Of a DNA stretch of 64,000 nucleotides, positions 2,813-59,418 are shown piece by piece. How positions within the stretch are numbered: the stretch's first letter is position 1; every line of letters starts with the position of its first letter. The notes beneath the pieces were generated by a model. It made no database searches, was not told the origin of the DNA, and saw only the letters and a program-made list of their open reading frames with translations. The position numbers and the translations under genes are program-made. The stretch comes from a virus: IMG/VR virus record IMGVR_UViG_3300046737_000227, positions 1 to 64,000 of that record; one strand, written 5' to 3'.

Positions 2813-3070
2813 TTATTCGTCGCGTTGGGGGTTCAAGCGGTTAAACTCCGCGGCCTCGGCCAGGGCGGCCTCGTAGTCCCAGGAGATGGTAACCACGCCC
2901 GTGCTGCCCATTCGCACCAGCGCCCAGCCCGGGCGCTGTTCGATGACCTCGGCCAATGGACTGATGGCGCCCTCGGTCAGCTCGGACAGCAGGAAAAACA
3001 GGTCCCGCGCTTCGTGGGTGAAAGCCTGTTGCTCGCGGCCTCCGGCGATGTGGGTGACGTGAAAGGTCAT
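2813..3070 (-). CDS. hypothetical protein (85 aa)
   Basis: ATG lies 5 nt after the class A hexamer. Confidence 0.7.
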   Translation of the reverse strand: MTFHVTHIAGGREQQAFTHEARDLFFLLSELTEGAISPLAEVIEQRPGWALVRMGSTGVVTISWDYEAALAEAAEFNRLNPQRDE

Positions 3071-3075
3071 AACTG

Positions 3076-3104
3076 AATGTCGCTCAGGTCGGTGCGATTG
3101 TCAA
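3076..3104 (-). promoter_or_regulatory. class A promoter
   Basis: TTGACA ATCGCACCGACCTGAGC GACATT CAGTT ATG. Confidence 0.6.
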
Positions 3105-3335: not shown

Positions 3336-3572
3336 TTAGGCTAAGGTCATGTCGATGGACATCGGGACAAACACGAAGCTATACAGCGCGCGCTTGAACC
3401 AGTTGACGCGCACATCGTAGCGCGCATCAAGGAAGTGGGCCAATTTGTCCCAGGCGGTGAATTCGCCGGCAAACTTGCCATCGACCATCAGGAAGGACGT
3501 TTCGCGGAGGCCGCAAGGCGCGCTCAGGACAATCCGGGGGTGTTTCACGGGGGTTTTGAAGTTCATTCTCAT
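3336..3572 (-). CDS. hypothetical protein (78 aa)
   Basis: ATG lies 5 nt after the class A hexamer. Confidence 0.7.
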   Translation of the reverse strand: MRMNFKTPVKHPRIVLSAPCGLRETSFLMVDGKFAGEFTAWDKLAHFLDARYDVRVNWFKRALYSFVFVPMSIDMTLA

Positions 3573-3577
3573 GTGAT

Positions 3578-3606
3578 AAGGTCGCCCAGGTCGGGCAGGT
3601 TGTCAA
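3578..3606 (-). promoter_or_regulatory. class A promoter
   Basis: TTGACA ACCTGCCCGACCTGGGC GACCTT ATCAC ATG. Confidence 0.6.
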
Positions 3607-5432: not shown

Positions 5433-5780
5433 TTAGAAATTAGGCCAATCGGGGGTGAGGTTTTGCACGGGCTGCTGGTCCGCGTAGAGCGCTTGCAGGC
5501 GGTCTTTGGCCGCGGTTAGCTCGGCGCTCAGCCGCTCGATTTCCTTGCGCATGGGGGTGGCAACCAGCTCCACCTCGGGGTTCTTGAGCGCGTAATTGCC
5601 GTGCGCGGTGGGCGCTTCTTTGCGCCAGACGGTCCAGCGGGCTAATTTGCGCGGGCAAACACACCCATCGGGCTCGCCGCTCGGCTTCAATTCACGCTCC
5701 GTCCAAAAAGTGAAGCCGCGCACCAGCGCCGACTTGCAAATCGCGGCCCCGGTCCAGATGTCGATTATGATTTTGCTCAT
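5433..5780 (-). CDS. hypothetical protein (115 aa)
   Basis: ATG lies 5 nt after the class A hexamer. Confidence 0.7.
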   Translation of the reverse strand: MSKIIIDIWTGAAICKSALVRGFTFWTERELKPSGEPDGCVCPRKLARWTVWRKEAPTAHGNYALKNPEVELVATPMRKEIERLSAELTAAKDRLQALYADQQPVQNLTPDWPNF

Positions 5781-5785
5781 GGGAT

Positions 5786-5814
5786 AAGGTCGGCCATCCG
5801 TGGCCGGTTGTCAA
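5786..5814 (-). promoter_or_regulatory. class A promoter (variant dyad)
   Basis: TTGACA ACCGGCCACGGATGGCC GACCTT ATCCC ATG. Confidence 0.55.
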
Positions 5815-9377: not shown

Positions 9378-9604
9378 GTGTTCACCACGCGAACTGTCCC
9401 GACGTGCTGGTATTCATGCGGCCCCGTCGGATTGGTTTTTTTGTTGTAAGTGGAACGAAACAGATGCCACACATTCGTGTGCGTGCCATCGGGCTTTATC
9501 GTTTGGTATCGACCACGCGCGTCAGCCCGCGACGCCTGCACGATGGTGCGGTAGCGTTGCGGCGCGTCATCATTGTCCCACGATACTTCAAAAGCAACTT
9601 TCAT
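9374..9604 (-). CDS. hypothetical protein (76 aa)
   Basis: ATG lies 12 nt after the class B hexamer CACTGG. Confidence 0.65.
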   Translation of the reverse strand: MKVAFEVSWDNDDAPQRYRTIVQASRADARGRYQTIKPDGTHTNVWHLFRSTYNKKTNPTGPHEYQHVGTVRVVNT

Positions 9605-9616
9605 CTTCCACTCTTA

Positions 9617-9644
9617 CCAGTGTGACCTTTTAGAAAAATGTCAA
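9617..9644 (-). promoter_or_regulatory. class B promoter (TTGACA-N16-CACTGG)
   Basis: TTGACA TTTTTCTAAAAGGTCA CACTGG TAAGAGTGGAAG ATG. Confidence 0.5.
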
Positions 9645-9649
9645 TAGGC

Positions 9650-10543
9650 TTAGTCCACGCTCGTCATCTTTTTCCAGTGGCTGTTGAAGTCCATGCGGTA
9701 GTCTTCGCGGCGCAGGTGTTGCCAGCCCTTGGCGTCCCATTCCGGTTTTTGGCGTTCGATGTCATCGGTCACGAACATCCAATTGAGCAGGTGCGCGTGA
9801 ATAGGGTCATCTGGATTTAAGTCGGGCACGCCGCCCAGGTCCGTCAGCACCTTCATGCTCTCGGCGTCGTTGTATCGCGCGCGGCCCTGCTGTGACAGGT
9901 CCCGCTCGGTTGTCTTGCGCGCCTTGCGGCAGCCCATATACCCGCCGGCCAGCAGGTGGTAGCGAAAAAGGTCAGAGAGCTCGGCCAGCTCCTTCATCGT
10001 GATATCATCCGGAATTTGGGTGTTGAGATAGGTGCCGTATTTGGTGCCCAGCCGCAGCGCCCAGCCGCCGGACGCGATGCCCAGGTGCACTTGCTTGCGC
10101 TTCCACCAAACGACGCCGGTAACGCGGGTAGGCGTTTGGTCGTCGTTGCGCCCCGTCCATGTCGGCACGCGGGCCTCTGCCATTTGAATTTCGCGGACGG
10201 TCCGCACGCGCTTGGGTTTGGGTGCGGGCTCCGGCTGTGGCAATGCGGCGTTGTCGATGGCGGCAAGGTATGAGGCACGCTGTGACGCCACGGTGCGCTC
10301 ACGTGCATCCCGGCGCATTTCCTCGGCCAGCGATTCCGCTTCCAGCCGGACCGCGCGCGTGGTCGGTAGCCCCTCGTTAGGGTCACCTAAAAGCCAGCGG
10401 CGATGCTCGGCCCACTTCATTCGGAGCGTGCCCAGGTTGATTTGTTTGGCGTGGCTGCGCACGCCGGCCCGGCTCGGACGCCGTCGGTGTTTGCGCGTGT
10501 CACGTCTAACGGGCTTTCGGTTTGGTTCGCTCATGCTACCCAT
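9650..10543 (-). CDS. first leftward early protein (297 aa; alternative ATG at 10534)
   Basis: Long ORF directly downstream of the class B promoter. The ATG at 10534 fits the promoter-to-start spacing better. Confidence 0.7.
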   Translation of the reverse strand: MGSMSEPNRKPVRRDTRKHRRRPSRAGVRSHAKQINLGTLRMKWAEHRRWLLGDPNEGLPTTRAVRLEAESLAEEMRRDARERTVASQRASYLAAIDNAALPQPEPAPKPKRVRTVREIQMAEARVPTWTGRNDDQTPTRVTGVVWWKRKQVHLGIASGGWALRLGTKYGTYLNTQIPDDITMKELAELSDLFRYHLLAGGYMGCRKARKTTERDLSQQGRARYNDAESMKVLTDLGGVPDLNPDDPIHAHLLNWMFVTDDIERQKPEWDAKGWQHLRREDYRMDFNSHWKKMTSVD

Positions 10544-10544
10544 A

Positions 10545-10572
10545 CCAGTGTGAAGAAATGCCGATTTGTCAA
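10545..10572 (-). promoter_or_regulatory. class B promoter, leftward arm
   Basis: TTGACA AATCGGCATTTCTTCA CACTGG. Lies 9 nt from the left arm of the 43-bp inverted repeat. Confidence 0.5.
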
Positions 10573-10581
10573 GGGCATGCG

Positions 10582-10742
10582 CTTACACGTCACAGTCAAC
10601 CTACCCTCCACCCACACAGGTTTTCTGGCTTTACTTTATCTGTTTTTGATTGAATCTATCTAATAAATATATATAAGTAGAAGAAGGATAGATAGTTATA
10701 AAACCTGTGTGGGTGGAGGGTAGGTTGACTGTGACGTGTAAG
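10582..10742. repeat. perfect 43-bp inverted repeat (10582-10624 / 10700-10742) flanking a 75-bp AT-rich core
   Basis: Arms checked base by base: cttacacgtcacagtcaacctaccctccacccacacaggtttt and its exact reverse complement. The core has 18 G/C in 75 nt. Confidence 0.95.
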
Positions 10743-10815
10743 GAAACAGCGAGGTGCTCGGTCGGACGTCACTCGGACCCCCTCGCATGGCTACTTTTGA
10801 CCGAGAGCAGAAAAT

Positions 10816-10830
10816 CGTGCATTTTGCACG
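10816..10830. promoter_or_regulatory. 15-bp palindrome CGTGCATTTTGCACG (operator candidate)
   Basis: Perfect dyad ending 2 nt upstream of the -35 of the rightward promoter. Related to the palindrome at 11734-11752. Confidence 0.45.
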
Positions 10831-10832
10831 CC

Positions 10833-10860
10833 TTGACATTTGGCCCTTTTTGCGCACTTA
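10833..10860 (+). promoter_or_regulatory. class B promoter, rightward arm (TTGACA-N16-CACTTA)
   Basis: TTGACA TTTGGCCCTTTTTGCG CACTTA. Unlike the others it is followed by a leader of about 40 nt with GGAGG at 10895-10899. Confidence 0.5.
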
Positions 10861-10906
10861 GGATAGGAATGACAATTTCAACCTTAAGGGAAACGGAGGT
10901 TTTTGT

Positions 10907-11062
10907 GTGAGCGACCCCAAAGACGTCGAAAAGAAACTCTTCGCTGGCGCACCTCATGCTGCGCAGAAGCTAAACTCAGCCGCTAAGAAACTGATACGCA
11001 AGCAGAAGCGTGAGCAGTGGTGGACCGCGAACCAGGATACCAAACGCAAGGGAATCTCGTAA
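10907..11062 (+). CDS. small basic protein (51 aa, GTG start)
   Basis: GGAGG lies 7 nt upstream. Open frame VSDPKDVEKKLFAG...KRKGIS found by hand translation. Confidence 0.45.
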   Translation: MSDPKDVEKKLFAGAPHAAQKLNSAAKKLIRKQKREQWWTANQDTKRKGIS

Positions 11063-11065
11063 CCC

Positions 11066-11707
11066 ATGTTGTTGAACAAGAACAAGTTAGACGTGGCGCA
11101 AATCCTGCTTACGTTCGTTGCGCTTTGCGGTGATGTGCAGAAGACTGCCGAAGCGTTAAACCTTGAGCCGAAGGTAGTTCAAGCGCTTGCGGATGCCGAG
11201 GGCTGGGACCTGAAGATTCAGCGCGTTACGCTCCTGGCCAAGTCTGGCAAGCCGGGCGACTTCGAGCGCGCCCAGAATCGCGCCCTCGCTTTTGTCCAGG
11301 GCCACCGCATTAGGTCCTTACTAGACAGCGTGATACGCCGCTTCGAGGGCCTGACGCCGGAAGAGATGTGTGATGCCGTGTCCAGCGTAAGCAAGAACGG
11401 GACCAGAATCCTATCGGCCCGCTATTTTACCGACCTCGCCTCCGCAGCCGAGAAGGCCAGCGCCATGTGCTATTCCGCCCTCGGCGATACCGCCGGCGAG
11501 CGCGTGCAGCGTGATGACGAGCCCGACCAGATGAACGTGAGCGCGTTGCATGCTGCTGTCATTGCGTCACTTAACTCGGCAGGCAGCCACACCAAGCCGG
11601 CGGACCAGATTGTCCGTGAGCTTGCCGAGGCGATTGAGGCGGTCGCGACGACTGAGCGAACCCAAGTCGAGACGCCGCCCGAACCCCCGACCCCAGGAGT
11701 TGGGTGA
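11066..11707 (+). CDS. HTH-like protein (213 aa), regulator or small-terminase candidate
   Basis: The N-terminal segment GDVQKTAEALNLEPKVVQALADAEGW looks like a helix-turn-helix. Acidic C-terminus. Confidence 0.55.
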   Translation: MLLNKNKLDVAQILLTFVALCGDVQKTAEALNLEPKVVQALADAEGWDLKIQRVTLLAKSGKPGDFERAQNRALAFVQGHRIRSLLDSVIRRFEGLTPEEMCDAVSSVSKNGTRILSARYFTDLASAAEKASAMCYSALGDTAGERVQRDDEPDQMNVSALHAAVIASLNSAGSHTKPADQIVRELAEAIEAVATTERTQVETPPEPPTPGVG

Positions 11708-12065: not shown

Positions 12066-12524
12066 GTGACAGAGAACCAAGTTCATTGGGCGAGGTATAA
12101 GCATACCGCCAACGCAGCGCGCCGTCGGGTGTATTTTCTTAAGAACCGGGAACAGATGGCGGCGCGCGCGGCAGCGCGTGAAAAGGCCCAGGAAACGGAG
12201 GCCCTGGGGCGCATAGTCCGGGCATCCCGGAAACCGACCCAGCCTGAGCGACGTGGGGAGGTGAAGGAAATGGTGGCCGCGGCTAAAAGAACCCCCTGCC
12301 GGGACTGCGGCGGTATGTTCCACCCCGATGCGATGGACTTCGACCACCGGGACGCCGACCTAAAAGCTTTCAACATCAGCCGGTCGCATGAATATTCCCA
12401 GAGCCGGGTGATGGAAGAAATCGCGAAATGCGACCTCGTCTGCGCAAATTGCCATCGCGTCCGAACGGCTCGCCGCCGGCTCGGGTTGCCCACCACCCCA
12501 CCCCCGCCCGACTACGAAATATGA
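12066..12524 (+). CDS. HNH endonuclease (152 aa)
   Basis: CRDCGG...DFDHRD...CDLVCANCHRVRT. Paralog of 39815-40192. Confidence 0.8.
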   Translation: MTENQVHWARYKHTANAARRRVYFLKNREQMAARAAAREKAQETEALGRIVRASRKPTQPERRGEVKEMVAAAKRTPCRDCGGMFHPDAMDFDHRDADLKAFNISRSHEYSQSRVMEEIAKCDLVCANCHRVRTARRRLGLPTTPPPPDYEI

Positions 12525-16251: not shown

Positions 16252-16430
16252 TGAAGACACTGAACCTCGACGAATTAATCGAGCGACTCGTGGCGATGCA
16301 AAAGCTCGGCGCCGGAAAACAGGAGGTCATCGTCTGGCACGACGGGTCGGTGGGCTGTGACGGCATTCGTCACGTGGAATCGTCGTTGGTGGGCGTTGAA
16401 GACGCGGCGCCATCTATCATCCTCACATGA
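16248..16430 (+). CDS. hypothetical protein (60 aa)
   Basis: ORF with ATGA overlap. Confidence 0.55.
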   Translation: MMKTLNLDELIERLVAMQKLGAGKQEVIVWHDGSVGCDGIRHVESSLVGVEDAAPSIILT

Positions 16431-17146
16431 GAGTTTTCGCTTACCTCCGGGTGTCCACGCAAGAGCAGGTGGACAAGAACGGGCTCGAGCGCCAGTGGGA
16501 CGCGATACAGTCGCTGCTCGCGTCGAAGCTGGACTGGACCATCGCACGGAAGTTTTCCGAGCACCAGTCCGGCGGCGTGACCTTCGAGAACCGCGGCATG
16601 CTGCTGGAGATGCTCGAGCTCGCGCAGACATACGACGTCGAGGCGATAGTCGTCGAGCGCGCGGACCGCATCGCGCGTGACCTGATGGCGCAGGAAATCT
16701 TTTTCGTGAAGTGCGGTGAACGGAACATCAAGGTGTTCGCCGCGGATACGGGCCAGGAGCTCACGTGCAAAGACGGCGACCCCACGCGCGTGCTGTTGCG
16801 GCAACTGCTCGGCGCGCTCGCGCAGTGGGAAAAAGCTGTCATTGTTAAGAAGCTGCAAGACGGTCGGCGGCGCACCGCGGCAAAGACTGGGATGCCCTGC
16901 GGCGGGCCGAAGGGTTACGGCACCCGCGGAGACGCCTCGGAGCAGGCGGACGAGCGGCGGGTCCTCAACTACATCCGGGAGCGCCGGCGGGGGGCGAACT
17001 GGACTTACAAGGAAATCGCGGACGAATTGAACCGGCGGCGGGAGCGGGCGCCGGGCGGCAAATTTTACTGGCATACCAGCACCGTTATGCACCTTGACAA
17101 AAAGCAAATTCCGGACACTTCTTCGGGGACATGGCGACCACATTAA
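16427..17146 (+). CDS. serine recombinase (resolvase/invertase-type catalytic domain, 239 aa)
   Basis: MRVFAYLRVSTQEQ places the catalytic Ser in the typical YxRVST context. VVERADRIARD follows, then a short C-terminal DNA-binding-like region. Confidence 0.85.
   Translation: MRVFAYLRVSTQEQVDKNGLERQWDAIQSLLASKLDWTIARKFSEHQSGGVTFENRGMLLEMLELAQTYDVEAIVVERADRIARDLMAQEIFFVKCGERNIKVFAADTGQELTCKDGDPTRVLLRQLLGALAQWEKAVIVKKLQDGRRRTAAKTGMPCGGPKGYGTRGDASEQADERRVLNYIRERRRGANWTYKEIADELNRRRERAPGGKFYWHTSTVMHLDKKQIPDTSSGTWRPH
17094..17121 (+). promoter_or_regulatory. class B promoter
   Basis: TTGACA AAAAGCAAATTCCGGA CACTTC TTCGGGGAC ATG(17131). Embedded in the recombinase 3' end. Confidence 0.5.
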
Positions 17147-27890: not shown

Positions 27891-29171
27891 ATGAGCGCTC
27901 AGTGTAACGATGCCGACCAGATTTCGGAAATCGCACAAAAAGACGTGTCCCGTCTCGTAGGGACCGTGGCCAAAACGTTGGCCGCGAATTCAGTGTTCAT
28001 CAATGTCATCGGTGGTGGAGTGTTCCCCTCCGGCGTCAGCGATGAAATCCGTTTCCCCGTCCAGATGCAGGCCGCCCCCGGCGACTCGCTCGCTCTCCCC
28101 ACTTTTCAGTGCGACACTGAAGTCTGCGGAACGAACGGCATCCAGGATTTGACCGACGCCATCGACTTCACGGCCCGGTTGGAAACCAAACGTGGTCGCG
28201 GTCCTCGCGTGTGTGTCAAAAAAGGCTACAGCGCGTTCAAAAGCTCGTATCTCTCCGCGGAGGATTCCCTCCGGAAGCTCATCACCCAGTATGTCAACTC
28301 CGACATCCGTGCTCAGTTATACCTGCGCTCAGCCTCGAAATTTAATGCCGTCGCCGGCTACGATTTTGACTCGCTGTTCACTGGTGGAACCGAAACGGAC
28401 CTCGGTGTTCAGTTCGCTCCGCTGTTGCCCACCGGCCCGCTGAGCTTCAAGGCGCTTCATTACGTCGTGCGTTTCGTCAAGGAGGCGTTGTTCGCTTCCA
28501 TGTTCGACAGCGAAGGCAAAGGGATGCCCCACGCTCGCTTCATCGGCAGCTCCGACATCATCGAGAGTTTCCGCAATGAAATCGGCGTCAAGGAAATCCT
28601 CATCGGCCTCACCACGGGCGGATACAAACTGGGCGAGCAATCGGTCAGCGCGTATCAGTTCGAGGAAGCCCCCGCGTATCGCGGTCTGGCTTTCGGTGTG
28701 GACCAACGTCCGCTTCGCGCCACTGGTTTCGACGGCGACGGCAACCTGATTCTGGTTGACCCCGTCGTGAACGTCGCGAACGTCTCGAAGAACACGGCTT
28801 TCGCCAAAATCAACCCCGCGTGGTTGGCTGCGGATTACGAAGTCGGGTTCCTCATGTTCGACAATACCTTCAACCGGCTGGTGCCCGAGAAGTATGTCGG
28901 CGAAGGCACGTTCAAGCACGCTCCGCAGCTTCACATGGGTGAGCTCGAGTGGCATTACATCGTGGACAACGACTGTAACCAGTTCGGCGACTTCGGTTGG
29001 CACAAGTATCAGATTACTCGCGCCTACCAGCCGATTCGGCCGCAGCACGTCATCCCCATCCTCTACCGTCGTTGCACGGCTGACCTCGGTCTGCCCGACT
29101 GCGCGGTTCCGGACAGCTCCAGTTTTTCTGGAAGCGACTCGTTTGCCTCGCTCGGTGTCTGCGACACCTAA
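27891..29171 (+). CDS. major capsid protein candidate (426 aa)
   Basis: It has its own promoter with a long structured leader and an AGGAAAGG purine tract before the ATG. A strong hairpin follows the stop. Size and position are typical. Confidence 0.6.
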   Translation: MSAQCNDADQISEIAQKDVSRLVGTVAKTLAANSVFINVIGGGVFPSGVSDEIRFPVQMQAAPGDSLALPTFQCDTEVCGTNGIQDLTDAIDFTARLETKRGRGPRVCVKKGYSAFKSSYLSAEDSLRKLITQYVNSDIRAQLYLRSASKFNAVAGYDFDSLFTGGTETDLGVQFAPLLPTGPLSFKALHYVVRFVKEALFASMFDSEGKGMPHARFIGSSDIIESFRNEIGVKEILIGLTTGGYKLGEQSVSAYQFEEAPAYRGLAFGVDQRPLRATGFDGDGNLILVDPVVNVANVSKNTAFAKINPAWLAADYEVGFLMFDNTFNRLVPEKYVGEGTFKHAPQLHMGELEWHYIVDNDCNQFGDFGWHKYQITRAYQPIRPQHVIPILYRRCTADLGLPDCAVPDSSSFSGSDSFASLGVCDT

Positions 29172-29464: not shown

Positions 29465-29704
29465 GTGCGACCTGCGTGCCGCCCCCGAACTCTTTTTACC
29501 GTGCTCGACAATCTCAAAGTTTACGGGGCGTCTGCTGTCGGATTCGGTTCTCCCATCGCAAACGTTTTCATTGACACCTCGACGTCCGTGCTGGGCGTGC
29601 TGGTGTTGGTCGGTCAAGTCGCCGTCGCCGTCGTGACCACGCTCTATATTTTTCGCAAGGCCCAAGCTTTGCGCAGCGACAAAAAGAACAAGAAAGATTC
29701 CTGA
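29465..29704 (+). CDS. small single-pass membrane protein with basic tail (79 aa or shorter)
   Basis: VLGVLVLVGQVAVAVVTTLYIFRKAQALRSDKKNKKDS. Confidence 0.45.
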   Translation: MRPACRPRTLFTVLDNLKVYGASAVGFGSPIANVFIDTSTSVLGVLVLVGQVAVAVVTTLYIFRKAQALRSDKKNKKDS

Positions 29705-31808: not shown

Positions 31809-32957
31809 ATGTCTTGTGGTTCTTGCGGAAATAATAATTGCGGCGGTTGCAATGAGTGCAACAGCTTTGTCACGGGCTGTGGGGCGTCGGGCACGCCGTG
31901 CGGCTCGTGCCCGCCGAATAGCGCCGATTGCGAAACGCTTCCGAGTGCGCTCCAAAACTTTGTCGATGCCTTCTTCGGTGCTGTCACCAAAACGGAAATC
32001 GACGGGCAAGTAACGTGGATTCTCCCATGTAACCTGGACATCGGGTTGCCGGGTAACCCGCGCGCGGACGGCGAAGGGCTCGCCTGCTATTTTCTTCGGT
32101 TGTTCCGGGACGGAATTAACGGGCTCGAGGGTCCCACTGGCCCGACGGGCGCTGCCGGCGAAAACGGCGCGAACGCCTGGACGATTATCCTCACGGCATT
32201 TGTTCAGCCGGCTGCGGGCGGCACGGTAAATTTCAACATCGTCGCTTCGCCGACCATCACGGTGGGCCAGACGTTTTTCGTCCCCGGCTCCGGGTATTAC
32301 ATCGTCACGAGCCGCATCTCGAATTCGGTTTTTGCTCAGCTCATCGAAGCTGTGCCGTCGCCCAACGCGGTGACGGTCCCCGGCACCATCGCTCTCCCCT
32401 GTGGTCCGCGCGGGCTCACGATTACCGGCCCGACCGGTGCTCCCGGTTTGGCGGGTCCGACGGGTGCCCAAGGTCCCACGGGTCCAACTGGCGCAACGGG
32501 CGCAACGGGTCCGACTGGACCGACGGGCGCGGTCACGACGAACGCGAACGGTCAGGTGACCGTCACGGGTGCGACGGACTTTACGGTCACGAACGCGGAC
32601 CAAAAAATCTCGTTCGGTATCTCGGACCCCGAGGTGACGCTCCCCTCAATCGGGACGTATCTTGTGATGGCTCGATTCCGCTGCTATCAGCAAATCGGCA
32701 GCGGCGACAATCTTGGTTGGGATTTTTACATGAACAACCAGACGACCGCTACCCCCGTCCCGGGAGGCGAGCATCCGGACGTGCTGATTCTAAACACGGG
32801 CGCGCCGACGCATTCTCAGTATTACCACATTTATTCCTTGGTCACGACGACGACCATCAACAACATCATCGACGTGCACGTGCAGTCGGAGAGCGGTTCC
32901 GCGCCGCAGACGATTTATCAGGACGGCTCGACCATCCTGTTCATCCAACTGTCCTAA
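31809..32957 (+). CDS. collagen-like repeat fibre protein with Cys-rich N-terminus (382 aa)
   Basis: N-terminal CGSCGNNNCGGCNECNSFVTGCGASGTPCGSCPP. Gly-X-Y runs [14 protein letters not shown] and [35 protein letters not shown]. Confidence 0.75.
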   Translation: MSCGSCGNNNCGGCNECNSFVTGCGASGTPCGSCPPNSADCETLPSALQNFVDAFFGAVTKTEIDGQVTWILPCNLDIGLPGNPRADGEGLACYFLRLFRDGINGLEGPTGPTGAAGENGANAWTIILTAFVQPAAGGTVNFNIVASPTITVGQTFFVPGSGYYIVTSRISNSVFAQLIEAVPSPNAVTVPGTIALPCGPRGLTITGPTGAPGLAGPTGAQGPTGPTGATGATGPTGPTGAVTTNANGQVTVTGATDFTVTNADQKISFGISDPEVTLPSIGTYLVMARFRCYQQIGSGDNLGWDFYMNNQTTATPVPGGEHPDVLILNTGAPTHSQYYHIYSLVTTTTINNIIDVHVQSESGSAPQTIYQDGSTILFIQLS

Positions 32958-33172
32958 TGAAAGACTGCACACATCCACTTCATCGCGATGACGAGGGAGA
33001 TTTGTCCCGTCCGTGTTTTCCACGTGGCTCGACGAAAATCCTGCCCGGGCGCACGCTGCCCCCGCGCATCATCGTGAACCAGACGGACGACGTGCTCCAG
33101 GACGAGGCCGGTTTTCCGATTCTGGATGAAGTGACCGGTCAGACCATCATCGACGATTTGCGACGACAATGA
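32958..33172 (+). CDS. hypothetical protein (71 aa)
   Basis: ATG immediately after the upstream TAA. Internal to ORF 32717..33172. Confidence 0.4.
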
Positions 33173-34269
33173 AAGTTTCAACCTACGTAGCCGGAGAAGA
33201 GGCGAATCCCGAAGGGTGGCTGTTCATCGCCGAACGCCAGCCGGACGGTTCTTACGAGACAAAGAAAATCGCCCCCGACAAACTCGGTGAAACGGGTCCT
33301 GCGGGTCCGCAAGGACTGCCGGGCTCCCCCGGCGCGACGGGTGCGACCGGTGCGCCAGGACCAACCGGCGCAACCGGAGCCGCCGGCGCAACCGGCCCCC
33401 AGGGCGCGGACAGCTCCGACGAATGGGTGCATCCCGACGGGCTGTCGGTTGACCTTTTTGAGGAGTATCCGGCGGGCGCGATTGTCGCTCCGAATGGCGG
33501 ATTCGGCTGGGACACCGCCGGCGTCGTCTCGGGCGGAACCATCGTCCAGCGCAACGTCGCGAATGGCCGCACAGAAAAGCGACTCAGCTTGACCGCCGGT
33601 GAATTCGCTCGCAAGCTCTACGTTGGCGGTGACTGGCATCGCCTGCGAATTGCGGTCCTGCTGCGCGTTAACGGCGCGTCCACTTTTACCGGGAATGGCT
33701 TTATCGGGCTATGTAGCGGGACGGCCAATCCCTTCGGCGGGACGACGGACAACGCCGTCGGTATTTATTTTGACCCGGTGAATGTGAATTCCTGGGCGTT
33801 CACGAACGGGACGACGGCGGATTTCTTCGCGCAAAGCGTGGGCACGCGGTTCGTCACCAAGCGCGGCGCGAGTGTCACCGACCAAGGCGGTGGAGCGGGC
33901 TCGGACGGGCGTCGGTTCGCCTCGGACGAAGACCACCGCTCACTTTTCCTGCTCGAGTATCGTCGTCCGGTTTTTGCGACCGCGGCCACGTCGGTGAGTT
34001 ACGAAGTTTCGATGCGCTCGACTAACGCGGCCCAAGCCGAATTCTCGCTCAGCAAGCGCGCTCTGTTCGACGCAATTTTAGACAGCGCAAACAACAGCAC
34101 CATCTGTCAGAGTGATACGATGGTAACGCTGACCGGCTCGGGTTCGACCACGGTCGCCAACACTTTCAGTTTCGACGAGAGCACGGGCGCCTTCGACACG
34201 CTCAACCTCCGCTGGGACGGCGCGCACCCGCTGGAAATCTGCGGGCTGGCGGTTCACAAGATTTACTAA
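33169..34269 (+). CDS. collagen-like repeat fibre protein (366 aa)
   Basis: [41 protein letters not shown], then a globular domain paralogous to that of 34272-35582. Confidence 0.75.
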
Positions 34270-34271
34270 AA

Positions 34272-35582
34272 ATGAACGTCTCCCTCGAAGAAATTTTTGA
34301 GCAGTCGCCGGTCACGGTTAACGGTGACGGGCATCTGTTGATTGGCCAGCTCAACGATGGCGGCGTGATTCAGCTGAAGCGAATTCATGTTACCACGTTG
34401 AATCAAGCGGTCGGCCCCACGGGTCCCACGGGTCCCACGGGCGCGAACGGAACGAACGGCACGAACGGCGTGACGGGTCCGACCGGACCCACGGGTCCCA
34501 CGGGTCCCACCGGCCCGGTTGGTCCGACGGGTTCCAACGGTCCCACGGGTCCGACTGGGCCAGCAGGCAGCACGGGTGCAACCGGACCTACTGGTCCGAC
34601 GGGCGCGAGCGGCGCAACCGGCCCAACGGGAGCTGCCGGCGCAACGGGTCCTACGGGTCCCACGGGAGCCGCCGGCGCAACTGGCGCAACGGGTCCGACG
34701 GGTCCCACAGGCCCGACGGGAGCAAACGGCACGAGCGGAGCGGATGGCGCTTCGTTCACGGTCGATTCATTCGCGCTGGATAATTTTGATGGATACGCGA
34801 CTGGCTCCATCTCTACTTTTTCCAGTGGCTCGGGATGGAGTGGCTCGGGTGCCGCATCGGGCGCGACTATCGTCGAAGTTACGATGTCGGACGGTCGTAT
34901 TGATAGGCGCATGTCGCTTGTCGGCCCGGGGGAATTCAAGCGAAAAATGATTTGGGGCGAAAAATGGAAACGCCTTCGCATCGGTCTGTTGCTACGCATC
35001 AACGGCGGGTCGACCATCACGGGCGATTTCGCTTTCGGCGTGTGCTCGGGCATCACTAACGGGGTAGGAAGTGCGGCGTGCACTAACTTCATCGGAGCGA
35101 CGACCCGCGTGGGCAACACGAATCAGTATACTTTTGCTGCCGGCAGTGACGTCGGGGTTTTCACCGCGACCTTTGCCGGCGGCTCGTCCAAGCGTGTGAA
35201 TACCTTCACGGACTACGGCGGGGTGTCCTCGATGAAAGGTTATCCGGCGACGGGGTCTTCGGCGCTTTGCATCAACATGCTGGACATCAAACGGGGCCGA
35301 CTCGCTGCGAGTGCGACCTACAGCATGTTCGTCCAAGGCCCGACCGGGTCTGGCACCGCCGCGGGCAGCGCGGAGCAGTTCCTGGACTGGGGCACGCTGC
35401 TTCAGGCAGTTTCTGAGGTGGACACCACGAGCCCCTCCGGGTGGTGGTATGACGGGGCGGCATCCACGAACTCGGGGACCTTCGACGAATCCGCGGGGGC
35501 GCTGGATTCCATCAATGTCTGGTGGAGCCACGCCTCTACCGCCATCGAAATAGCGGGCATCGCGGTGATGAAAGCCTTTTGA
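34272..35582 (+). CDS. collagen-like repeat fibre protein (436 aa)
   Basis: About 40 Gly-X-Y triplets ([19 protein letters not shown]...), then a C-terminal domain aligning with 33169-34269: [20 protein letters not shown] vs [20 protein letters not shown]. Confidence 0.8.
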
Positions 35583-39818: not shown

Positions 39819-40192
39819 TGGACACGTATTACGCAACGCTAACGCCGGAACAGAAGGCCGCAAAGGTCGAGAAGAATCGCGCTCGGCTTACCCCGGAGAA
39901 GCGCGCGGAGTATTATCAAACCGCGCTCGAGAAACAGCGGAAGCGAACGGCCCTGGTCAAGCTCTTAAAGGCCGAACGCGGCTGCTACGACTGTGGGGCC
40001 ATGTTACCGCCCGAGTGTTTGGACTGGGACCATCGTCCTGGAACTGAGAAATGTTTTACGCCGTCGAAAGCGCTGGGAACTGTTCCCATCGACCGACTGG
40101 TTGATGAATTGAATAAGTGCGACGTGGTGTGCTCTAATTGCCATCGCATCCGCACGGAACAACGAAAGAAATATGCCGCTCCAACGAACTAA
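39815..40192 (+). CDS. HNH endonuclease (125 aa; ATG at 39818 also possible)
   Basis: CYDCGA...DWDHRPG...CDVVCSNCHRIRT. Paralog of 12066-12524. Confidence 0.8.
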   Translation: MMDTYYATLTPEQKAAKVEKNRARLTPEKRAEYYQTALEKQRKRTALVKLLKAERGCYDCGAMLPPECLDWDHRPGTEKCFTPSKALGTVPIDRLVDELNKCDVVCSNCHRIRTEQRKKYAAPTN

Positions 40193-44745: not shown

Positions 44746-47700
44746 ATGCCGAGCGTCATTGAGGATTTAGGGGCAGGGGAATCTTTCACGGACACGCCCG
44801 TCCCGGTTGTGCCAGCTGAGGTGCCCGTCTACGGCGGCACGGCTCGGGGACTGAAATCCTCGAAGCCCATCACGCCGGAAGTTCAGGCGCAGCTCGACCA
44901 GTCCAGCAAAGGGATGCGGGCCGCACTCGCGGAAAAGGGAATCGAAGCCCCGCCGATGCTGCCCGAGGAGGCCGCGAAAGCCGCCGCTGAAAAAGAAAAG
45001 GAAGATAAAGCGTTCGCCGGACTGCAGGAGGTGGACCCTTTTAGCGTGTTGCAAGAAGTCGACCCCCGCTCTGTTGGGGAGGAGCCCGAATTCCGCGGCG
45101 TCCCGTTGGCCGACCGACTCGATACTGAGAAGCCCGATGTTCTCGCCAAGGACCCGAAGTTCAATGTGCTCGAGCACATCGCGACGAACCGCGACAATAT
45201 TTTTCAGGACCCCAATCGCTACAAAAAAGCGCTCGACACTTATCGCGCGCAAAAAGTCGTGGGCACCACGGCGAACAAGGTCTGGGAATCCGCCAAGAAA
45301 GAAACGGGTCCCCTGCTTTTGGAAATTCTCAAATCTTTGCCGAAGCGGCTCGAGAATGTTTCTGATATCGCCATTGGTCCGGTGATTAACGACATCACGG
45401 CAAAGTTTCGTCACGAGAGTGCCGACCCCGCGCTTCGCGCGCAGTGGGATAAAATGACAGACGACAACCGCGAGGCCGCCATCGCCGAGGCCATCGGCGG
45501 AACGCAGCTCGCCGTGGGCTCGCTTCAGGACATGGTGCGCCAGGGCGCGCGCAAGCTGACGGGTCCCGGATTCAATTTGAAACAGCTCAAGGTGACCCCT
45601 TCGGGTGTCTCGATGGAGCGCAAAGACTGGAGCAAAATTTCTGATGAAGAAGTCAAAAGCGAGTTATTCAAAGACCTCGGCTGGCACGACACCGTCCAAG
45701 GTATCTCGTCCGGCCAAACCGTCAAAGACCTCGTCAGCGAAGGCGTCCAGCTCAACCCGGAAAACATCAAGCTACTGAGCTTGACGGACCCGGTCACGCT
45801 CGTCGCCACTGCCGGCGGACTCAAGGCCGTGGGCGTCGGTGGCAAAGTTCTTTTTACCGCGGCCAACGAAGTTGGCGCGGGCAAAGCGCTGAACTACCTC
45901 GGACAGCTTTCCCAAACCGCCGCGGCGAAAACCACGCAGCTCGTCGGCACGGGCATCGAAAAAACCGGTAAGGTCATCGCCTCTGCGCTTCCCATCTCGG
46001 GCCAGGGCATTAGCGTCGGCGCCGGACTGAGTCTTTTAGGCGTCCCACACAAGGCCATCCTGGCGGCGCGTATCGCGGCCCCCGTTTTACAGAAGACGGG
46101 ACAGGTCGTTCGGGAAATCGGCGAAGCCGCCGGGGCCGCCCCTAAAGGGCAGCTGTCCCTGGGTCTGGAAACCACGACGGGCGCCAAGCTCGTCAACGCG
46201 GCGAAGACCGTTTCAAAATTTGTTCAACCGCCCGTGGCCGGCGCCGTCAAGGGCGCCGTGGGAACTGCGCCGCTGGCACTCGCGACCGACGAACCGCAAG
46301 GCGGGCTGCTCGGCGTGGGTGCCGTCGGCGGGGCCGTGCACTCTGCCCTCGGAGCCGTCAAAGGCGCGGTCGCCGAAGCCGGCGCGAAAAAATATTTCGA
46401 CCCGGGCCAAATCAACTGGGAAGCGACCCCGTCTCCTGGCTACGATAACTTCACCGAGCTGAACAAAGTTCACGAGCAGGTCGCCGCGTCCACGCCGTCT
46501 AACGCGCGGAACATGGTGGATAGCTTGCGCGAAACGCTGCGCCCGTTCGGCAAGAAACTTTTCCTCGTCGACGACGCGGCTTTTTCCAAGGCCATCGCTG
46601 ACGATACGGTCCGTGCGAACGGTGGCAAATCGCTCACGCCGGAACAACAGGCGGCGGTCACCCAGGAATCCAAAGCGCGCGGCGTTTCAAAAATCTGGAT
46701 GGCAGATGACGCGGGCAAGGGCGAGATGGTTACGCTCGTCAAAGGCTCCGCGAACGCTCCACACGAGTTTGCCCACGTCCTGGAATCCGTAATGGAGCCC
46801 GCGGGACGCGAAGCACTGCACGACGCGGTCCGCAAGGCATACACGCCCGGAGAACTGGAAGCCTTGCGGCAGCATTACGAAAAATCTTTGGGCAGCCGTT
46901 TTGCCGCGGACGTGCCGGGCGTGATGCAAGAAGTCCGCAGCGAATTCATCGCCGACAATTGGGCGAACCTGCTTTACAACACGTCGCTCGAGTCACTCGG
47001 GCTGCCGAAACCGAAATCCTCGTTCCGCGCAAAAATGCTGGACGCGGCGTTGACCTTGGGTGACGCGCTGGGTATCGACATGACGGCAGGCCGCGGCACC
47101 CCGGGGTTGAACCTGAAGCCGAGCTATAGCCTGCGCAAGGCGCTCGAGAACGCGAGCGGTGAAATTTTAGCGGAGCGTGACCAGCGCGCCGCGCAGCAAG
47201 CGACTGCTCCCGAGGTGAAGCCGGTGGCTGAAGCGCCGGCGGCTCCGGTCGAAGTTCCCGTCGAATCCGTGCAGCCGGAGCTGGATTTTACCACGCCCCC
47301 GCCCAAAGAAATTCCCGCTCAAGGCGAGCTCAATTTTGAGACGCCGTCGGCACAACCGAAAGTGGCCCCGGCAGCGACCCCTCCCGCGCCGGCACCCACC
47401 GAAGTCCCGCCGACGGTGTCTCCCTCCCGTGGGGTTTCCACCCCCGAGGCCACCGCCGCCCGTGCCGAGGTCACCAATACCGGGGTCGGTGCGGCCTGGG
47501 CCAAAGGCAAGGACAACGAGCAAGCGGTGACGGAAGTGAACAAGGCACTCGATGAAAGCGTCGGGCTGACCGTCGAACACGCCGGCGCTCCCAAAGCGTC
47601 TTTTAAGCCGACGGAGCCCGAACGCGCCGCCGAGGTGGAAGAAGGCCGCGGGTTGCCGCCAGAACAGCGCGAGCTGCATGCCGGGAAAAAATATCCCACG

Positions 47701-50700
47701 CGATGGGAGCAGACGAAAAGCGGGGAACCGCAGCTCGTCGCCCGTAGCGTGGACAAGGTTCTCTCCAACGTGGACCGCGCGGTGCAGTGGGGGAAATCCG
47801 CGGGCGAAGAAATCCCGTGGGAGACGGACGCGAACGGTGCGCTCACCGAAGCCGGCACCAACGAACTTTTGTCGGACCTGAACGCCTACTGGGATAACCA
47901 GGACCGAGGTTTTCGTGGCGGGGGCAAGCAGCTGGTTCGTCCCGGCGACGAGCTCGGTGCGGCAATCCCGCGTGAGCAAGGCGAGGGAAAAGTTTTAGGC
48001 GACGCCAAGGAACAATGGCTTAATCTGCTTCAAGGTAAAGACGTCGGCCCGCCCGAGACGGCGCGCGCCCAAAAAGGCAAGTTACCTGCCAACATTAAGG
48101 CGCAGGAAATCCGCGCTGCCCAGGGCGACGTGTCCGAACGCATCGCGCCGGGGACCGACATTCCGATTTATCCCGAGAAGGTGACCGGGGGCCGCGGACC
48201 CGTAGAAATCAAGGAGACGAACCCGCTGCGCAATCGTCTGCGCGCCGCCGGCATGCCGGTGGGGGACCTGCACACGGTCGTCGAGCGACTCAACGCTGCG
48301 GACATCGTCAAAGCCGAACGCGCCCCCGAATTAACGGGACGCGGCGGACAGACGGACACCGCCCGCGCGGGATACCTGACGGACCAGCCTGTGGACAAAA
48401 CTATCGCAGACGTGCTCGCGGATTCCCCGGACGACTGGATGAAACGGTTCGGTCCGAAGAATACGTTGACGGGGTCGGCGTATGAGCTGGGGCTGAACCT
48501 CACGTCGAAGGACGAGTTGAACGCGTTGCGCGAGGCGCAGTCCAAGGCGTCCGCTGCCCAAGTCTCTGCCCTCGCAGAAGCCCGGGCGGGGAACCTCGAC
48601 AAGCTGGACGAGGCTTACGCGCTCGCGACCAAGGCCCAATTTTTCCGTGAGGCGATTGAAGCCGCCACGGACACCGCTTCTGCCGCCGGTCCATCCGGCT
48701 GGCGCCGCGCGTTCCCGGACCGCACTGCTCCGTTCGCGGAAGTCAGTGCCGCAGCCGCGGAACGCGCTGGCTTCCTTTCTGAAAAAGAACTGAAGTCCAT
48801 TCGCAATGGCGAAAAAGATGGTGAAACTTTCAACGGGGACGGAACCGTTTTTGTCCCGCCCGAGGACGCCTCGCTGGACGTCGTCACGCTCGCTAGCGTG
48901 AACCTGCCGGCGGCAGAGCTGAACGCGAAGAACGTCGCGGCGGCGTTGAAGCCCTACAAGGGCCTTCTGGGGAATGAGAACATCAAAGCGGGAATCTTCC
49001 GGCTGTCGGAGCCCGATGCCGAAGGCCGGCCCCAGGTCAGCGTGGATGTGAACGCCATCGTGGACCAGAAGCACCGCAAGTCGTCTTTGGCTTTTGCCCG
49101 TGCGAATAACCAGGAAGCCATTTTCGACATGGCCCGCGGCAAAACGGTTGATGCCGGCGGCACGGGTAACACGGTCCTCCGGGACCCGAAAGAAATCGCC
49201 CAGGCCGCGGATGCGTTGCAGGCCGGGGAAAATTACCTGGAGACGAAAGCGCGTTTCAAAGCGGCGGAAGCGAGGCGCAAGGGTCCGGTTCGTCAGGCGA
49301 TTGAAGACATCAAGGGGGACCTCGATATCACCGTCAAAGCGATTACCCGAGAATCCGAAGCCGCCGCGCGGAAACGCGTCGCGGAGACGGACTACTCGAA
49401 ATACAACGTGCCCGAGGAACAAAAGCCGAAGGGCAAGGGACCGACTGGTTGGGCACTTCCCGACGGGCAGTTCATCCGACTCGACACGGACTATCATCAG
49501 ACGTGGCTCGGGGAACACTCCGAGCAGTTGAACAAACAATACGGAACCGAATTCTCCAAGGACGCCACGGTCGAGGACCGACAAGCCGCGCTCAACAAGG
49601 GATTCATCCGCGTTCGCGAATACGGCGGCAAGCTGGCCATCGAAGCGAACCAGAAATTTTTCCGTGGCAAGGGCAAGCGCGCGATTGAAGTGCTGCTCGA
49701 CGACCACGCCAAAGACATCGACTCCGCGCGAATCACGCTCCTGGATAACGAGGGCAAGGTGACGGACACGATGGCGGACAACAAGCTTTTTGAGAGTGAA
49801 AATCCGGCACAGGATTTAATGGACCTAGTGGATGCGGTTGACCCGAACAAGGTCGCTCCGAAGCGGGGTCCCTCGGCCATTCAAATCGCGCGCAGCCGCG
49901 AGGGTTACCTCACGCCGGAAATTCCGACGGACGAGGCCATCACCGACGCGCTGAGCGAGGAAAAGAAACCTTTTGTCGGAGCCGCGCGCGACCTGGATGA
50001 AGGCACCCCGGTCGGCCTGCGGATTGACATCCCGGCTTATAACCGCACGGGCAAATACGTCATCACCGTCCACGAAAAAGCCGAAGGCGGGCGCGTGGGC
50101 AAGCGGATTGGTTACGACTCCATCGCGACCGTGGACAACCCGACCTTTTTCTCCAACACCAAGGGCGCGGCAAAAATCGCTGAGGGCGCGGCGAAGTTTC
50201 CCATCGCGACCGTCGAGGGCGAATGGAATCCCTCGCGTGAACTGCCGGCGGACCTCTCCGAGTGGACCGAGGTTGGTTTCAATCCCACCAAGCACGACTA
50301 TTTCTACGAGAAGGGAACCGACGAACCGGTGACCGGCGGAACCCAGGCCGTGAGCGTGGGCAACTCGGTTTTCGTCAAGGACGCCACGTTCGGCAGCAAA
50401 GCGGACGTCGCGGCACGCGGCGGGTATCTCCCTGGCGAAAAGCTGACGCCCGAGACGGCAGAAGCCGCGGCGGACAAGCACAACGAGGAATACACCAAGT
50501 CGTATCCCGAGGCATACCCCACGCGGTTCATCCGCGACTCCAAAGGCAAGCTCAAGCTGCAAGGCGGCAAGCTCGTCCCCGGTGACGAGGAAGCCGTTCT
50601 CGACAAAACGCCGCTCGCGCTTGACGCGGTGCGGGAGAACCCGGACGCGCCGGCGCACGAAGTTATTTCGGACGCGCTCGCGGACAAAATCGTGGCCGAA

Positions 50701-58630: not shown

Positions 58631-59418
58631 ACTTCCCCCTGCGCGTCGACGCCGGCCTTGGCGAATGCCTTGGCGAGCTTGCCGATGGCGACGTCGTGGA
58701 TTTGGCGAACCCGTTCGCGCGTGATGTCGAGCGTGTCCCCGATTTCGCGGAGGTTCAGGTCCTCGTAATAAAACATACGGAGGATTTTCAGCTCCTTAGC
58801 CGTGAGCGCACTGGACTGCGCCTTTGCCAAGCATGCCAGCACCAGCTCGCGGCTGTCGTTCTCAACGTCAGGCTGCACGATGCCGGCATCGTTGTCCAGG
58901 AGCCCGAGGTTTTCCCCGTCGGTGTCCGGGAAGTTCCCGTGATAGTCGACGATATCCTTGGACCGCCAGAGCGTGGCGATTTCGGACCGGATGTAAGGCT
59001 TCGCGTAGCTCGAGAAGCGCTTCCCGCGCGTGTGGTCGAACGCCTCGAACGCCTTCATCAAGCCGAAGTTCGCCGCACTGACGACCTCGTTGTCCGGCAG
59101 TTTGCCCTTCACGATTTTTCGCGCGTAGGTGGCCGCAAAAAGAAGGTGGTTGGTGATGATGTATTCGCGCGCCTGCTGCACCTCCGTCGCCGTGGCCTTG
59201 ACGCCGCGGGCGGTGGTGAACAGCCGCGTCTCGTCCTCGGCGGACAAGAGGGTGAACTTGAGGTCGGTCCCGGGAGCGTAGTAACTTTGGTTGTCGGTCA
59301 TAGAAAAGTAGTGGGGGCACAGGGGCATCCACGGTCCGAAGCGAGAGAGGTATTCCTCCGCTCGATTCGAGCCCGTCGGGTTGGGCCGGTCTGAATATCC
59401 CACGATTAGGTTCTTCAT
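58627..59418 (-). CDS. sigma-70-family RNA polymerase sigma factor (263 aa)
   Basis: Region 2-like NFGLMKAFEAFDHTRGKRFSSYAKPYIRSEI. Region 4 LTAKELKILRMFYYEDLNLREIGDTLDITRERVRQIHDVAIGKL. Confidence 0.85.
   Translation of the reverse strand: MKNLIVGYSDRPNPTGSNRAEEYLSRFGPWMPLCPHYFSMTDNQSYYAPGTDLKFTLLSAEDETRLFTTARGVKATATEVQQAREYIITNHLLFAATYARKIVKGKLPDNEVVSAANFGLMKAFEAFDHTRGKRFSSYAKPYIRSEIATLWRSKDIVDYHGNFPDTDGENLGLLDNDAGIVQPDVENDSRELVLACLAKAQSSALTAKELKILRMFYYEDLNLREIGDTLDITRERVRQIHDVAIGKLAKAFAKAGVDAQGEV

Follow-up and report, generated by a model that had tools for sequence, protein, structure and literature searches.

The stretch of phage DNA analysed here (64,000 nucleotides, referred to below as the window) covers most of a genome of ~73–75 kb, and the related contigs measure 71–75 kb. 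The leftward genes start at 10.5 kb, and the rightward genes run from 10.9 kb to ~52 kb, near which the two gene arms reconverge. The leftward set, at the far end of the window, includes a Mom-like protein, a primase-helicase-like protein (781 aa, 59415–61760) and pieces of a DNA polymerase A, and the rightward set includes an HNH endonuclease, a serine recombinase, collagen-like tail fibres and a protein of 2304 aa. The GC skew is weak and its sign tracks the coding strand, without a clear origin signature, and no tRNAs were found in the window. A search of the 50,697 deposited phage genomes of INPHARED (megablast, tblastn) returned no match to the region or to two large proteins.

Several side features of the window were recorded as well. 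The 2304-aa ORF (44746–51660), which matches only two small C-terminal PHROGs of unknown function, could encode a giant protein that is ejected or associated with the virion. Positions 32415–34750 contain long runs of repeats with a 9-nt period (collagen-like, Gly-X-Y), and this stretch reaches into both of the tail-fibre-like genes 33169–34269 and 34272–35582. Positions 12404–12468, inside the HNH endonuclease gene 12066–12524, share a 65-nt segment with positions 40093–40157 (72% identity); the copy at 40.1 kb may belong to a second HNH gene, and the pair suggests a duplicated or homing-type endonuclease. A 54-nt repeat with a terminal T-run is present in three copies (660–713, 832–885 and 1428–1481) around the Mom-like gene (858–1970).

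The features found at the point where the two gene arms diverge are as follows, with the strand given where one applies:

9650–10748: hypervariable cassette consisting of the orphan gene, its putative promoter and the inverted-repeat element (delimited by comparing the window with L014 and L017 with L019)
9650–10543, minus strand: orphan early gene of 297 aa (270 aa if a later start is used), part of the cassette and coding for a candidate arm-binding protein
10566–10571, minus strand: −35-like TTGACA box of the putative leftward promoter serving the orphan gene (sequence read; recurs in relatives)
10582–10624: left arm of the inverted repeat, 43 nt, the exact reverse complement of 10700–10742
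10625–10699: AT-rich asymmetric core, 75 nt, 24% GC (18/75); candidate DNA-unwinding or bending element
10643–10677, plus strand: polar motif conserved among the cores, TTGAAT-N16-TATAAG and then a purine tract (AGAAGAAGGATAG), promoter-like (alignment of seven cores)
10700–10742: right arm of the inverted repeat, 43 nt (sequence read and repeat finder)
10816–10830: perfect palindrome CGTGCAtttTGCACG, just upstream of the rightward −35 box and unique in the window
10833–10838, plus strand: −35-like TTGACA box of the putative rightward promoter (sequence read; recurs in relatives)
10907–11707, plus strand: first rightward genes (51 aa and 213 aa), conserved and outside the cassette (comparison with relatives)

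The sequence read and the repeat finder agreed that the left arm, CTTACACGTCACAGTCAACCTACCCTCCACCCACACAGGTTTT, is complementary to the right arm at 43 of 43 positions. The arms are 75 nt apart and the whole element is 161 bp long. A preliminary description of this locus had reported the same arm coordinates and length, the perfect complementarity and a 75-nt core with 18 G/C, all of which proved exact. The ORF 10707–10910, which was said there to run through one arm, is present too; it has no family match, and the arm sequence is not conserved in relatives.

The arm sequence, and likewise each half of it, was found at these two places only in the 64 kb, even with up to 3 mismatches allowed, and the number of matches expected by chance was 0 (100 shuffles). 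The window contains no other long, close-spaced inverted repeat. The element folded as single-stranded DNA has a predicted energy of −56.2 kcal/mol, compared with −15.5 ± 2.9 kcal/mol for the shuffled sequences (z = −14). The core has a GC content of 24% against 58–64% in the window and is not palindromic. No other 75-bp duplex in the 64 kb is as unstable (dG −77.9 kcal/mol, z 6.2; runner-up z 3.6), and the same place was also the least stable at duplex lengths of 50 and 100 bp (z 5.5–6.2; runner-up 3.5–4.0). With no further copy in the 64 kb, the arm sequence suits a function exerted at one site, for example that of an origin or an auto-operator, and not a global regulator.

Repeats of this length also have a practical consequence, since they break short-read assemblies. 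Two independent Logan assemblies of the same phage break in the arms: one (L011) ends at window position ~10611 in the left arm and the other (L022) starts at ~10713 in the right arm. Because the repeat is longer than the assembler k-mer, these breaks are regarded as an assembly hazard and not as evidence of inversion.

The geometry of the element was compared with that of known structured elements. The hairpin promoters of the N4 type have a stem of 5–7 bp and a loop of 3 nt and are repeated at the early promoters; a single copy with a 43-bp stem and a 75-nt loop has the wrong dimensions for this type. A protelomerase target (telRL, N15-type) was rejected on the grounds that the arms are split by an asymmetric core, 52–98 nt long in the different lineages, and do not form an uninterrupted palindrome. 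None of the ~40 larger ORFs scanned matched a protelomerase. No Rfam family reached the gathering score, and a permissive Rfam search returned only sub-threshold models of microRNA precursors, on both strands, which reflects the generic shape of a long hairpin.

The preliminary description had placed the element between the first leftward and the first rightward promoter. Conserved TTGACA boxes are indeed present at 10566–10571 and 10833–10838 and recur in relatives, but a sigma-70 consensus scan of positions 9400–11200 detected no full canonical promoter, and the two promoters are confirmed only in part. The distance from the leftward box to the outer edge of the left arm is 10 nt in the window, and TTGTCAA(G) lies 0–10 nt from the left arm in 8 lineages. 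On the other side, a TTGAC(A/G/T) box lies 33–98 nt from the right arm in 9 lineages. The leftward TTGACA box also heads five repeated leftward promoter-like units (repeat family D3). A 59-nt unit is present in five copies (195–253, 2448–2506, 3046–3104, 3548–3606 and 5756–5814), and on the minus strand it consists of TTGACAA, a GC-rich dyad (CGACCTGGGCGAC), the sequence A(C/T)NTT(A/G/C) and an ATG a few bases on. The five units look like repeated leftward early promoters for leaderless or near-leaderless genes.

Variants of the palindrome CGTGCAtttTGCACG are present in most relatives, just upstream of the rightward −35 box (L014, L006, L009, L010, L020 and L047). Because it is conserved across the lineages, unlike the arms, this palindrome is probably a separate operator for a conserved regulator. 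The 51-aa basic ORF 10907–11062 (…DPKDVEKKLFAGAPHAAQKLNSAAKKLIRKQKREQWW…) is the first rightward gene in all relatives, and in several of them its start codon lies a few bases past a promoter-like CTCTTA motif. The 213-aa protein (11066–11707) is 57–92% identical across the lineages and does not vary with the arms. Its model showed a weak, non-significant resemblance to the small terminase of G20C and to HTH regulators. A pac site read by the 213-aa protein was considered and dropped, since this protein is conserved while the arms are not.

For the comparison with relatives, the loci were drawn from IMG/VR, JGI metagenomes, Logan and NCBI, using the 213-aa protein, the orphan protein and the serine recombinase as anchors. 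The same architecture was found at the same place in 14 of 14 distinct lineages, the window being one of them, and it was kept down to 39% identity of the 213-aa anchor protein. The arms of the 14 lineages are 26–52 nt long and 80–100% complementary, and they flank AT-rich spacers of 52–98 nt. The GC content of the core is 24–39% in all of them, that of the locus 52–62%. The matching arm positions and the spacer lengths are given below:

Window: arm matches 43/43, spacer 75 nt
L012: arm matches 35/40, spacer 85 nt
L001: arm matches 35/35, spacer 52 nt
L005: arm matches 29/30, spacer 70 nt
L006: arm matches 36/36, spacer 98 nt
L009: arm matches 31/32, spacer 63 nt
L010: arm matches 24/27, spacer 71 nt
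L014: arm matches 29/31, spacer 76 nt
L017: arm matches 29/35, spacer 81 nt
L019: arm matches 27/30, spacer 83 nt
L020: arm matches 24/30, spacer 78 nt
L023: arm matches 48/52, spacer 72 nt
L047: arm matches 30/31, spacer 60 nt
L050: arm matches 22/26, spacer 97 nt

The preliminary description had named the lack of the arrangement in related phages as an outcome that would speak against it, and the opposite was observed. The arm sequences themselves cannot be aligned between most lineages, although the neighbouring genes are conserved. The inverted repeat exists as described, does not arise by chance and is conserved far into the relatives, and it has evolved in an unusual way: as judged from the comparison of the loci, the arm sequences turn over completely with the symmetry preserved, the element is exchanged as a cassette and the core flips.

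A MITE, or another selfish insertion with terminal inverted repeats, could look like this element of 161 bp, with its perfect 43-bp repeats at the ends of a short AT-rich body. This explanation is hardly credible, as the element is single-copy in the window, no target-site duplication is visible at its edges, and every relative has it at the same position with a different sequence each time. Nor did a search of IMG/VR and of 185,579 species genomes return an exact match to the arms. A host-derived sequence was rejected on the same empty search.

The limits of the exchanged block were determined by nucleotide comparison, which showed that the replaced sequence extends from the 3′ end of ORF 9650–10543 to the outer edge of the right arm. 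The clearest pair is L017 and L019. Their loci share 99.2% identity as far as the orphan gene's stop codon and 99.0% again from the final 2–4 nt of the right arm onward; inside the cassette, their orphan proteins are 44% identical and their arms unalignable. Between the window and L014 the 213-aa protein is 92% identical and the orphan protein 28%, and homology (95.5% nucleotide identity) resumes at 10749, 6 nt past the outer edge of the right arm. The 213-aa proteins of L010 and L020 are 100% identical, their orphan proteins 36%. The orphan proteins share 28–55% identity between genomes whose flanking proteins are 92–100% identical, and there are at least 10 cassette alleles.

A homologue of the orphan protein adjoins the inverted repeat in 12 of the 14 lineages. 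In L023 and L050, the two most distant lineages, the inverted repeat is kept next to a gene without detectable homology to the orphan family. The earlier view that no gene explains the element needs amending because the orphan gene 9650–10543 and the element form one inherited cassette. The most similar arms were found in pairs with more similar orphan proteins (window and L012, 55%; L001 and L005, 75%), with the exception of L009 and L010, whose orphan proteins are 72% identical and whose arms are dissimilar. A Mantel test of arm similarity against orphan-protein identity over all lineage pairs was not significant (rho 0.10, p 0.23), and the firm result is therefore the linkage in one cassette and not a graded covariation. 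We consider it more likely than not that the arms are the cognate site of the adjacent orphan protein.

The orphan protein gave no match in Pfam, PHROG, the PDB sequences, the PDB folds or BFVD, and an HMM search of 1.84 billion proteins recovered 10 cluster representatives only. No similarity was detected between it and known initiators (Rep, O, DnaA and helicase families). In the AlphaFold model (pLDDT 76), a disordered and basic N-terminus precedes a helical bundle, a sheet of three strands with a helix after it, and further helices at the C-terminus. The model had no significant Foldseek match in PDB or BFVD, and the predicted structure would be consistent with DNA binding. A single Pfam match at E = 4 pointed to an AP2-like sheet and helix in the centre, which is not claimed here.

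The serine recombinase noticed in the preliminary description at 16427 is real: the gene 16427–17146 encodes a protein of 239 aa with a resolvase domain (Pfam Resolvase, 2e-22) and an HTH, and it is conserved throughout the phage family. The presence of a conserved gene of the resolvase/invertase type favoured the suggestion made there that the inverted repeat is a target of this enzyme, that is, its resolution or inversion site. However, the recombinases of L028 and L035 are 99% identical and the arms of these two phages have no similarity to each other. As the recombinase is this constant across unrelated arms and its gene lies outside the cassette, 5.7 kb away, it is not the protein that reads the arms. 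The arms also have no conserved crossover core, and no flipped core was found within a lineage. We consider that this suggestion has next to no chance of being right. The only candidate recombinase target seen is a weak 26-nt inverted pair around the tail-fibre genes (28724–28749 and 29614–29639; 85% complementary, 864 nt apart).

The cores are more conserved between the alleles than the arms. Several alleles have the same polar layout, namely a T-rich part, TTGA(A/C/T)T, an AT-rich stretch, TATAAG or TAAAT, and a purine tract such as AGAAGAAGGATAG. The motif at 10643–10677 looks like a promoter, and it is not claimed as one because its spacing varies. The alignment of the cores revealed that both orientations occur relative to identical flanks. 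Positions 10643–10677 of the window match the L014 core at 31 of 35 positions only when one of them is reverse-complemented (score 48 reversed versus 19 forward), and the cores of L017 and L019 scored 58 reversed versus 15 forward. The two orientations were thus seen between cassette alleles, in two close pairs. They are expected if the core can function either way round between the flanks.

To search for flipped cores within a lineage, flank-anchored patterns had to be used, since with perfect arms a flipped junction is identical to the other junction on the opposite strand. These searches found no flipped form within any lineage in the assembled contigs of IMG/VR. The orientation was constant within a lineage across samples (4 samples of the L001 type, 3 samples of the L006 type, and the loci of the L017 type). 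As the orientation is fixed within lineages and the flipped form was not found, the flips appear to be evolutionary or at most rare events, and frequent switching of the core is not supported.

These results bear on the possibility that the element is an invertible promoter switch, in which a promoter in the core (TTGAAT-N16-TATAAG) would be flipped by recombination between the arms to feed either operon. The core is polar and promoter-like, both of its orientations are found relative to identical flanks in the two close pairs, and near-perfect arms are expected from repeated crossover between them. Meanwhile, besides the fixed orientation in replicate contigs from different samples and the empty flank-anchored searches, the spacers of 52–98 bp are very short for the synapsis of a site-specific invertase; length limits of this kind are known for Hin and Gin, and the minimum for Cre is roughly 82 bp. 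The serine recombinase, the only one that could be recognised, does not change along with the arms, and every infection needs both operons. We therefore regard such a switch as very improbable. The element resembles Hin/hix and Gin/gix in having inverted repeats around a segment seen in two orientations, in a genome that encodes a serine recombinase, and it differs from them in that the recombinase does not track the arms, the segment is only 52–98 bp long and no flip was detected within a lineage.

Another explanation for the arms is that the structure itself is the function, so that a cruciform or single-strand hairpins with AT-rich loops would act as a signal to the priming or packaging machinery or to a virion polymerase, and no protein that reads the sequence would be needed. 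Complementarity of 80–100% is held in spite of a complete turnover of the sequence, which amounts to large-scale compensatory change, the fold is very stable, and an AT-rich centre would favour its opening. However, several lineages tolerate 3–6 mismatches per arm (L012, 88% complementary; L017, 83%; L020, 80%), and in our reading of the alignments these would be wobble pairs on different strands in different lineages. Loops of 52–98 nt would slow the extrusion, and the linkage to the orphan gene is left unexplained. Moreover, recombination from arm to arm, the occurrence of which is shown by the core flips, would yield both the flips and the homogenisation of the arms, and such concerted evolution explains their perfection, so that selection on base pairing need not be invoked. 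A purely structural role is accordingly improbable.

The main rival of the origin proposal set out below is a purely transcriptional control, which we consider unlikely as a complete explanation. The orphan protein would then be a repressor or an activator, and the two inverted operators would clamp a bent AT-rich spacer, in the manner of the phi29 p4/p6 early-late switch or of looping repressors, and thereby weight the leftward early promoter against the rightward promoter for packaging and structural genes; the alleles would be immunity-like or exclusion types. The structural switch for both early promoters suggested in the preliminary description survives in this form. The left arm abuts the leftward −35 box, at 0–10 nt in 8 lineages, the orphan gene is the first gene of an early operon, which is a typical place for a regulator, and the regulator and its sites are swapped as a block, like immunity modules. 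Furthermore, L023 has a third copy of the 14-nt inner-arm motif (ACACTAGGCCGCGC) at 2837–2850, between the −35 and −10 regions of the rightward promoter, which hints that the arm-binding factor also represses the rightward promoter in that lineage.

Nevertheless, this extra copy of the motif near the promoters was found in L023 alone of the 9 lineages tested and is absent from the 8 others, and the distance from the right arm to the rightward −35 box varies from 33 to 98 nt. Near-perfect arms of 26–52 bp and a GC content of 21% over the least stable 75-bp window of the spacer are more than an operator needs. No relative of the 213-aa family, as a prophage or otherwise, was found in the 185,579 species genomes, and no integrase was seen, which makes a classical immunity function unlikely. 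It should be added that a transcriptional role and an origin role are not mutually exclusive, as the control region of the SV40 type illustrates by analogy.

Our best guess, which we hold only tentatively, is that paired inverted sites for the orphan protein flank an unwinding element and together form a replication origin of typed specificity, with autoregulation of the leftward promoter as a second role. An origin was among the roles named in the preliminary description, and as a candidate it fits all the findings, including the least stable core, the linkage of the arms to the gene and the position at the divergence point. Origins are usually predicted by their location between divergent operons, together with an AT-rich tract and repeats (PMC7145576). 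The element lies between the divergent leftward and rightward gene arms, the two inverted arms flank the core in every lineage, all 14 cores are AT-rich, and that of the window is the least stable duplex of the 64 kb. The phage also encodes its own primase-helicase-like protein and DNA polymerase A. A known initiator family is missing from this set, as the Pfam, PHROG, PDB and BFVD searches gave no match for the orphan protein. The conserved polar, promoter-like motif of the core and the arm motif in the rightward promoter of L023 are just as compatible with a role in transcription.

In the proposed mechanism, which is built on sequence comparison, the element would be the DNA half of a protein-plus-site specificity cassette, the arms being paired inverted binding regions for the orphan protein 9650–10543 and the core the stretch that is bent and melted. 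The early orphan protein would be made first from the leftward promoter and would load symmetrically on both arms. The core would then open, and the primase-helicase and the DNA polymerase would start two forks codirectional with the diverging gene arms. The left arm touches the −35 box of the orphan gene's own promoter, and binding of the orphan protein may therefore autoregulate this promoter as well. The arms would be kept nearly identical by recombination or gene conversion between them, which would occasionally flip the core; the core would work either way round.

Several known systems have a comparable design. In the SaPIbov1 origin, two iteron sets flank an AT-rich region of ~80 bp. The SaPI origins are recognised by a Rep initiator with its own iterons, and the protein and the sites change together, which results in replication specificity types (PMC7581432). 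The lambda O protein and ori-lambda are likewise a module of an initiator and an origin (PMC6022878, PMC7466680). As in these two systems, the gene of a candidate DNA-binding protein here adjoins repeated putative sites and an AT-rich tract; the gene and the sites are replaced together as one cassette. In contrast to their short direct iterons, the sites of the phage are two long, near-identical inverted arms (26–52 bp), and unlike lambda O and the SaPI Rep helicases, the orphan protein has no similarity to any family. The candidate origin also lies outside the gene, and its replication function is a proposal made from sequence.

The SV40 core origin with T antigen and the HSV origins oriL and oriS with UL9 have inverted initiator sites that flank an AT-rich centre between divergent transcription units. 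In these viruses the initiator also regulates the adjacent promoter, and the symmetry serves the bidirectional loading of the helicase. The element shares with them the inverted arms, the AT-rich centre and the position at a divergence point. The SV40 and HSV origins are true palindromes through the centre, whereas the 75-nt core of the element is asymmetric and is found either way round among the alleles; the hosts and the proteins are unrelated.

The early-late switch of phi29 depends on p4 and p6, where a small early protein acts on inverted sites in a curved AT-rich region between the divergent early and late promoters. The half-sites of p4 measure only 6 bp, and the p4 sites form no allelic cassettes, unlike the near-perfect 43-bp arms that are exchanged as cassettes here. 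In P1 parS, two arms of ParB boxes flank a central IHF bend, one complex touches both arms, and the specificities of the site and the protein vary together between P1 and P7. Two arms around a centre and the joint inheritance of the site with a candidate binding protein are common to parS/ParB and the element. Unlike in P1, no ParA-type ATPase or ParB domain was detected near the element, and the family was not found as a plasmid or a prophage in the sequenced genomes.

The likely kind of function, an origin or a control site with a cognate protein, is thus known already from other systems. What is new in this family of uncultured phages is the orphan protein, the design with long arms and the behaviour of the cassettes as alleles. 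A bolder version of the origin proposal, which is quite unlikely, would make it a new class of origins in which a protein of orphan fold reads the long arms and the arms pair within the strands, propping the core open. The swappable cassettes would then be private replication types that keep co-infecting relatives or satellites from exploiting near-identical lytic phages. In a variant of this version, the orphan protein could be a new kind of recombinase, responsible both for the homogenisation of the arms and for the flipping of the core.

If the cassette is an origin with its initiator, replication-specificity alleles would be circulating among near-identical genomes of uncultured phages that show no sign of lysogeny. 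Lambdoid phages, SaPIs and plasmids are the better-known examples of such allelic exchange. In that case a function could also be assigned to an orphan family without detectable relatives outside this phage group. The cassette is a compact system of ~1.1 kb that can be tested, with one protein, a site of 161 bp and at least 10 natural alleles. It may be used to study the co-evolution of DNA-binding specificity with a paired site, as well as how long inverted repeats stay perfect.
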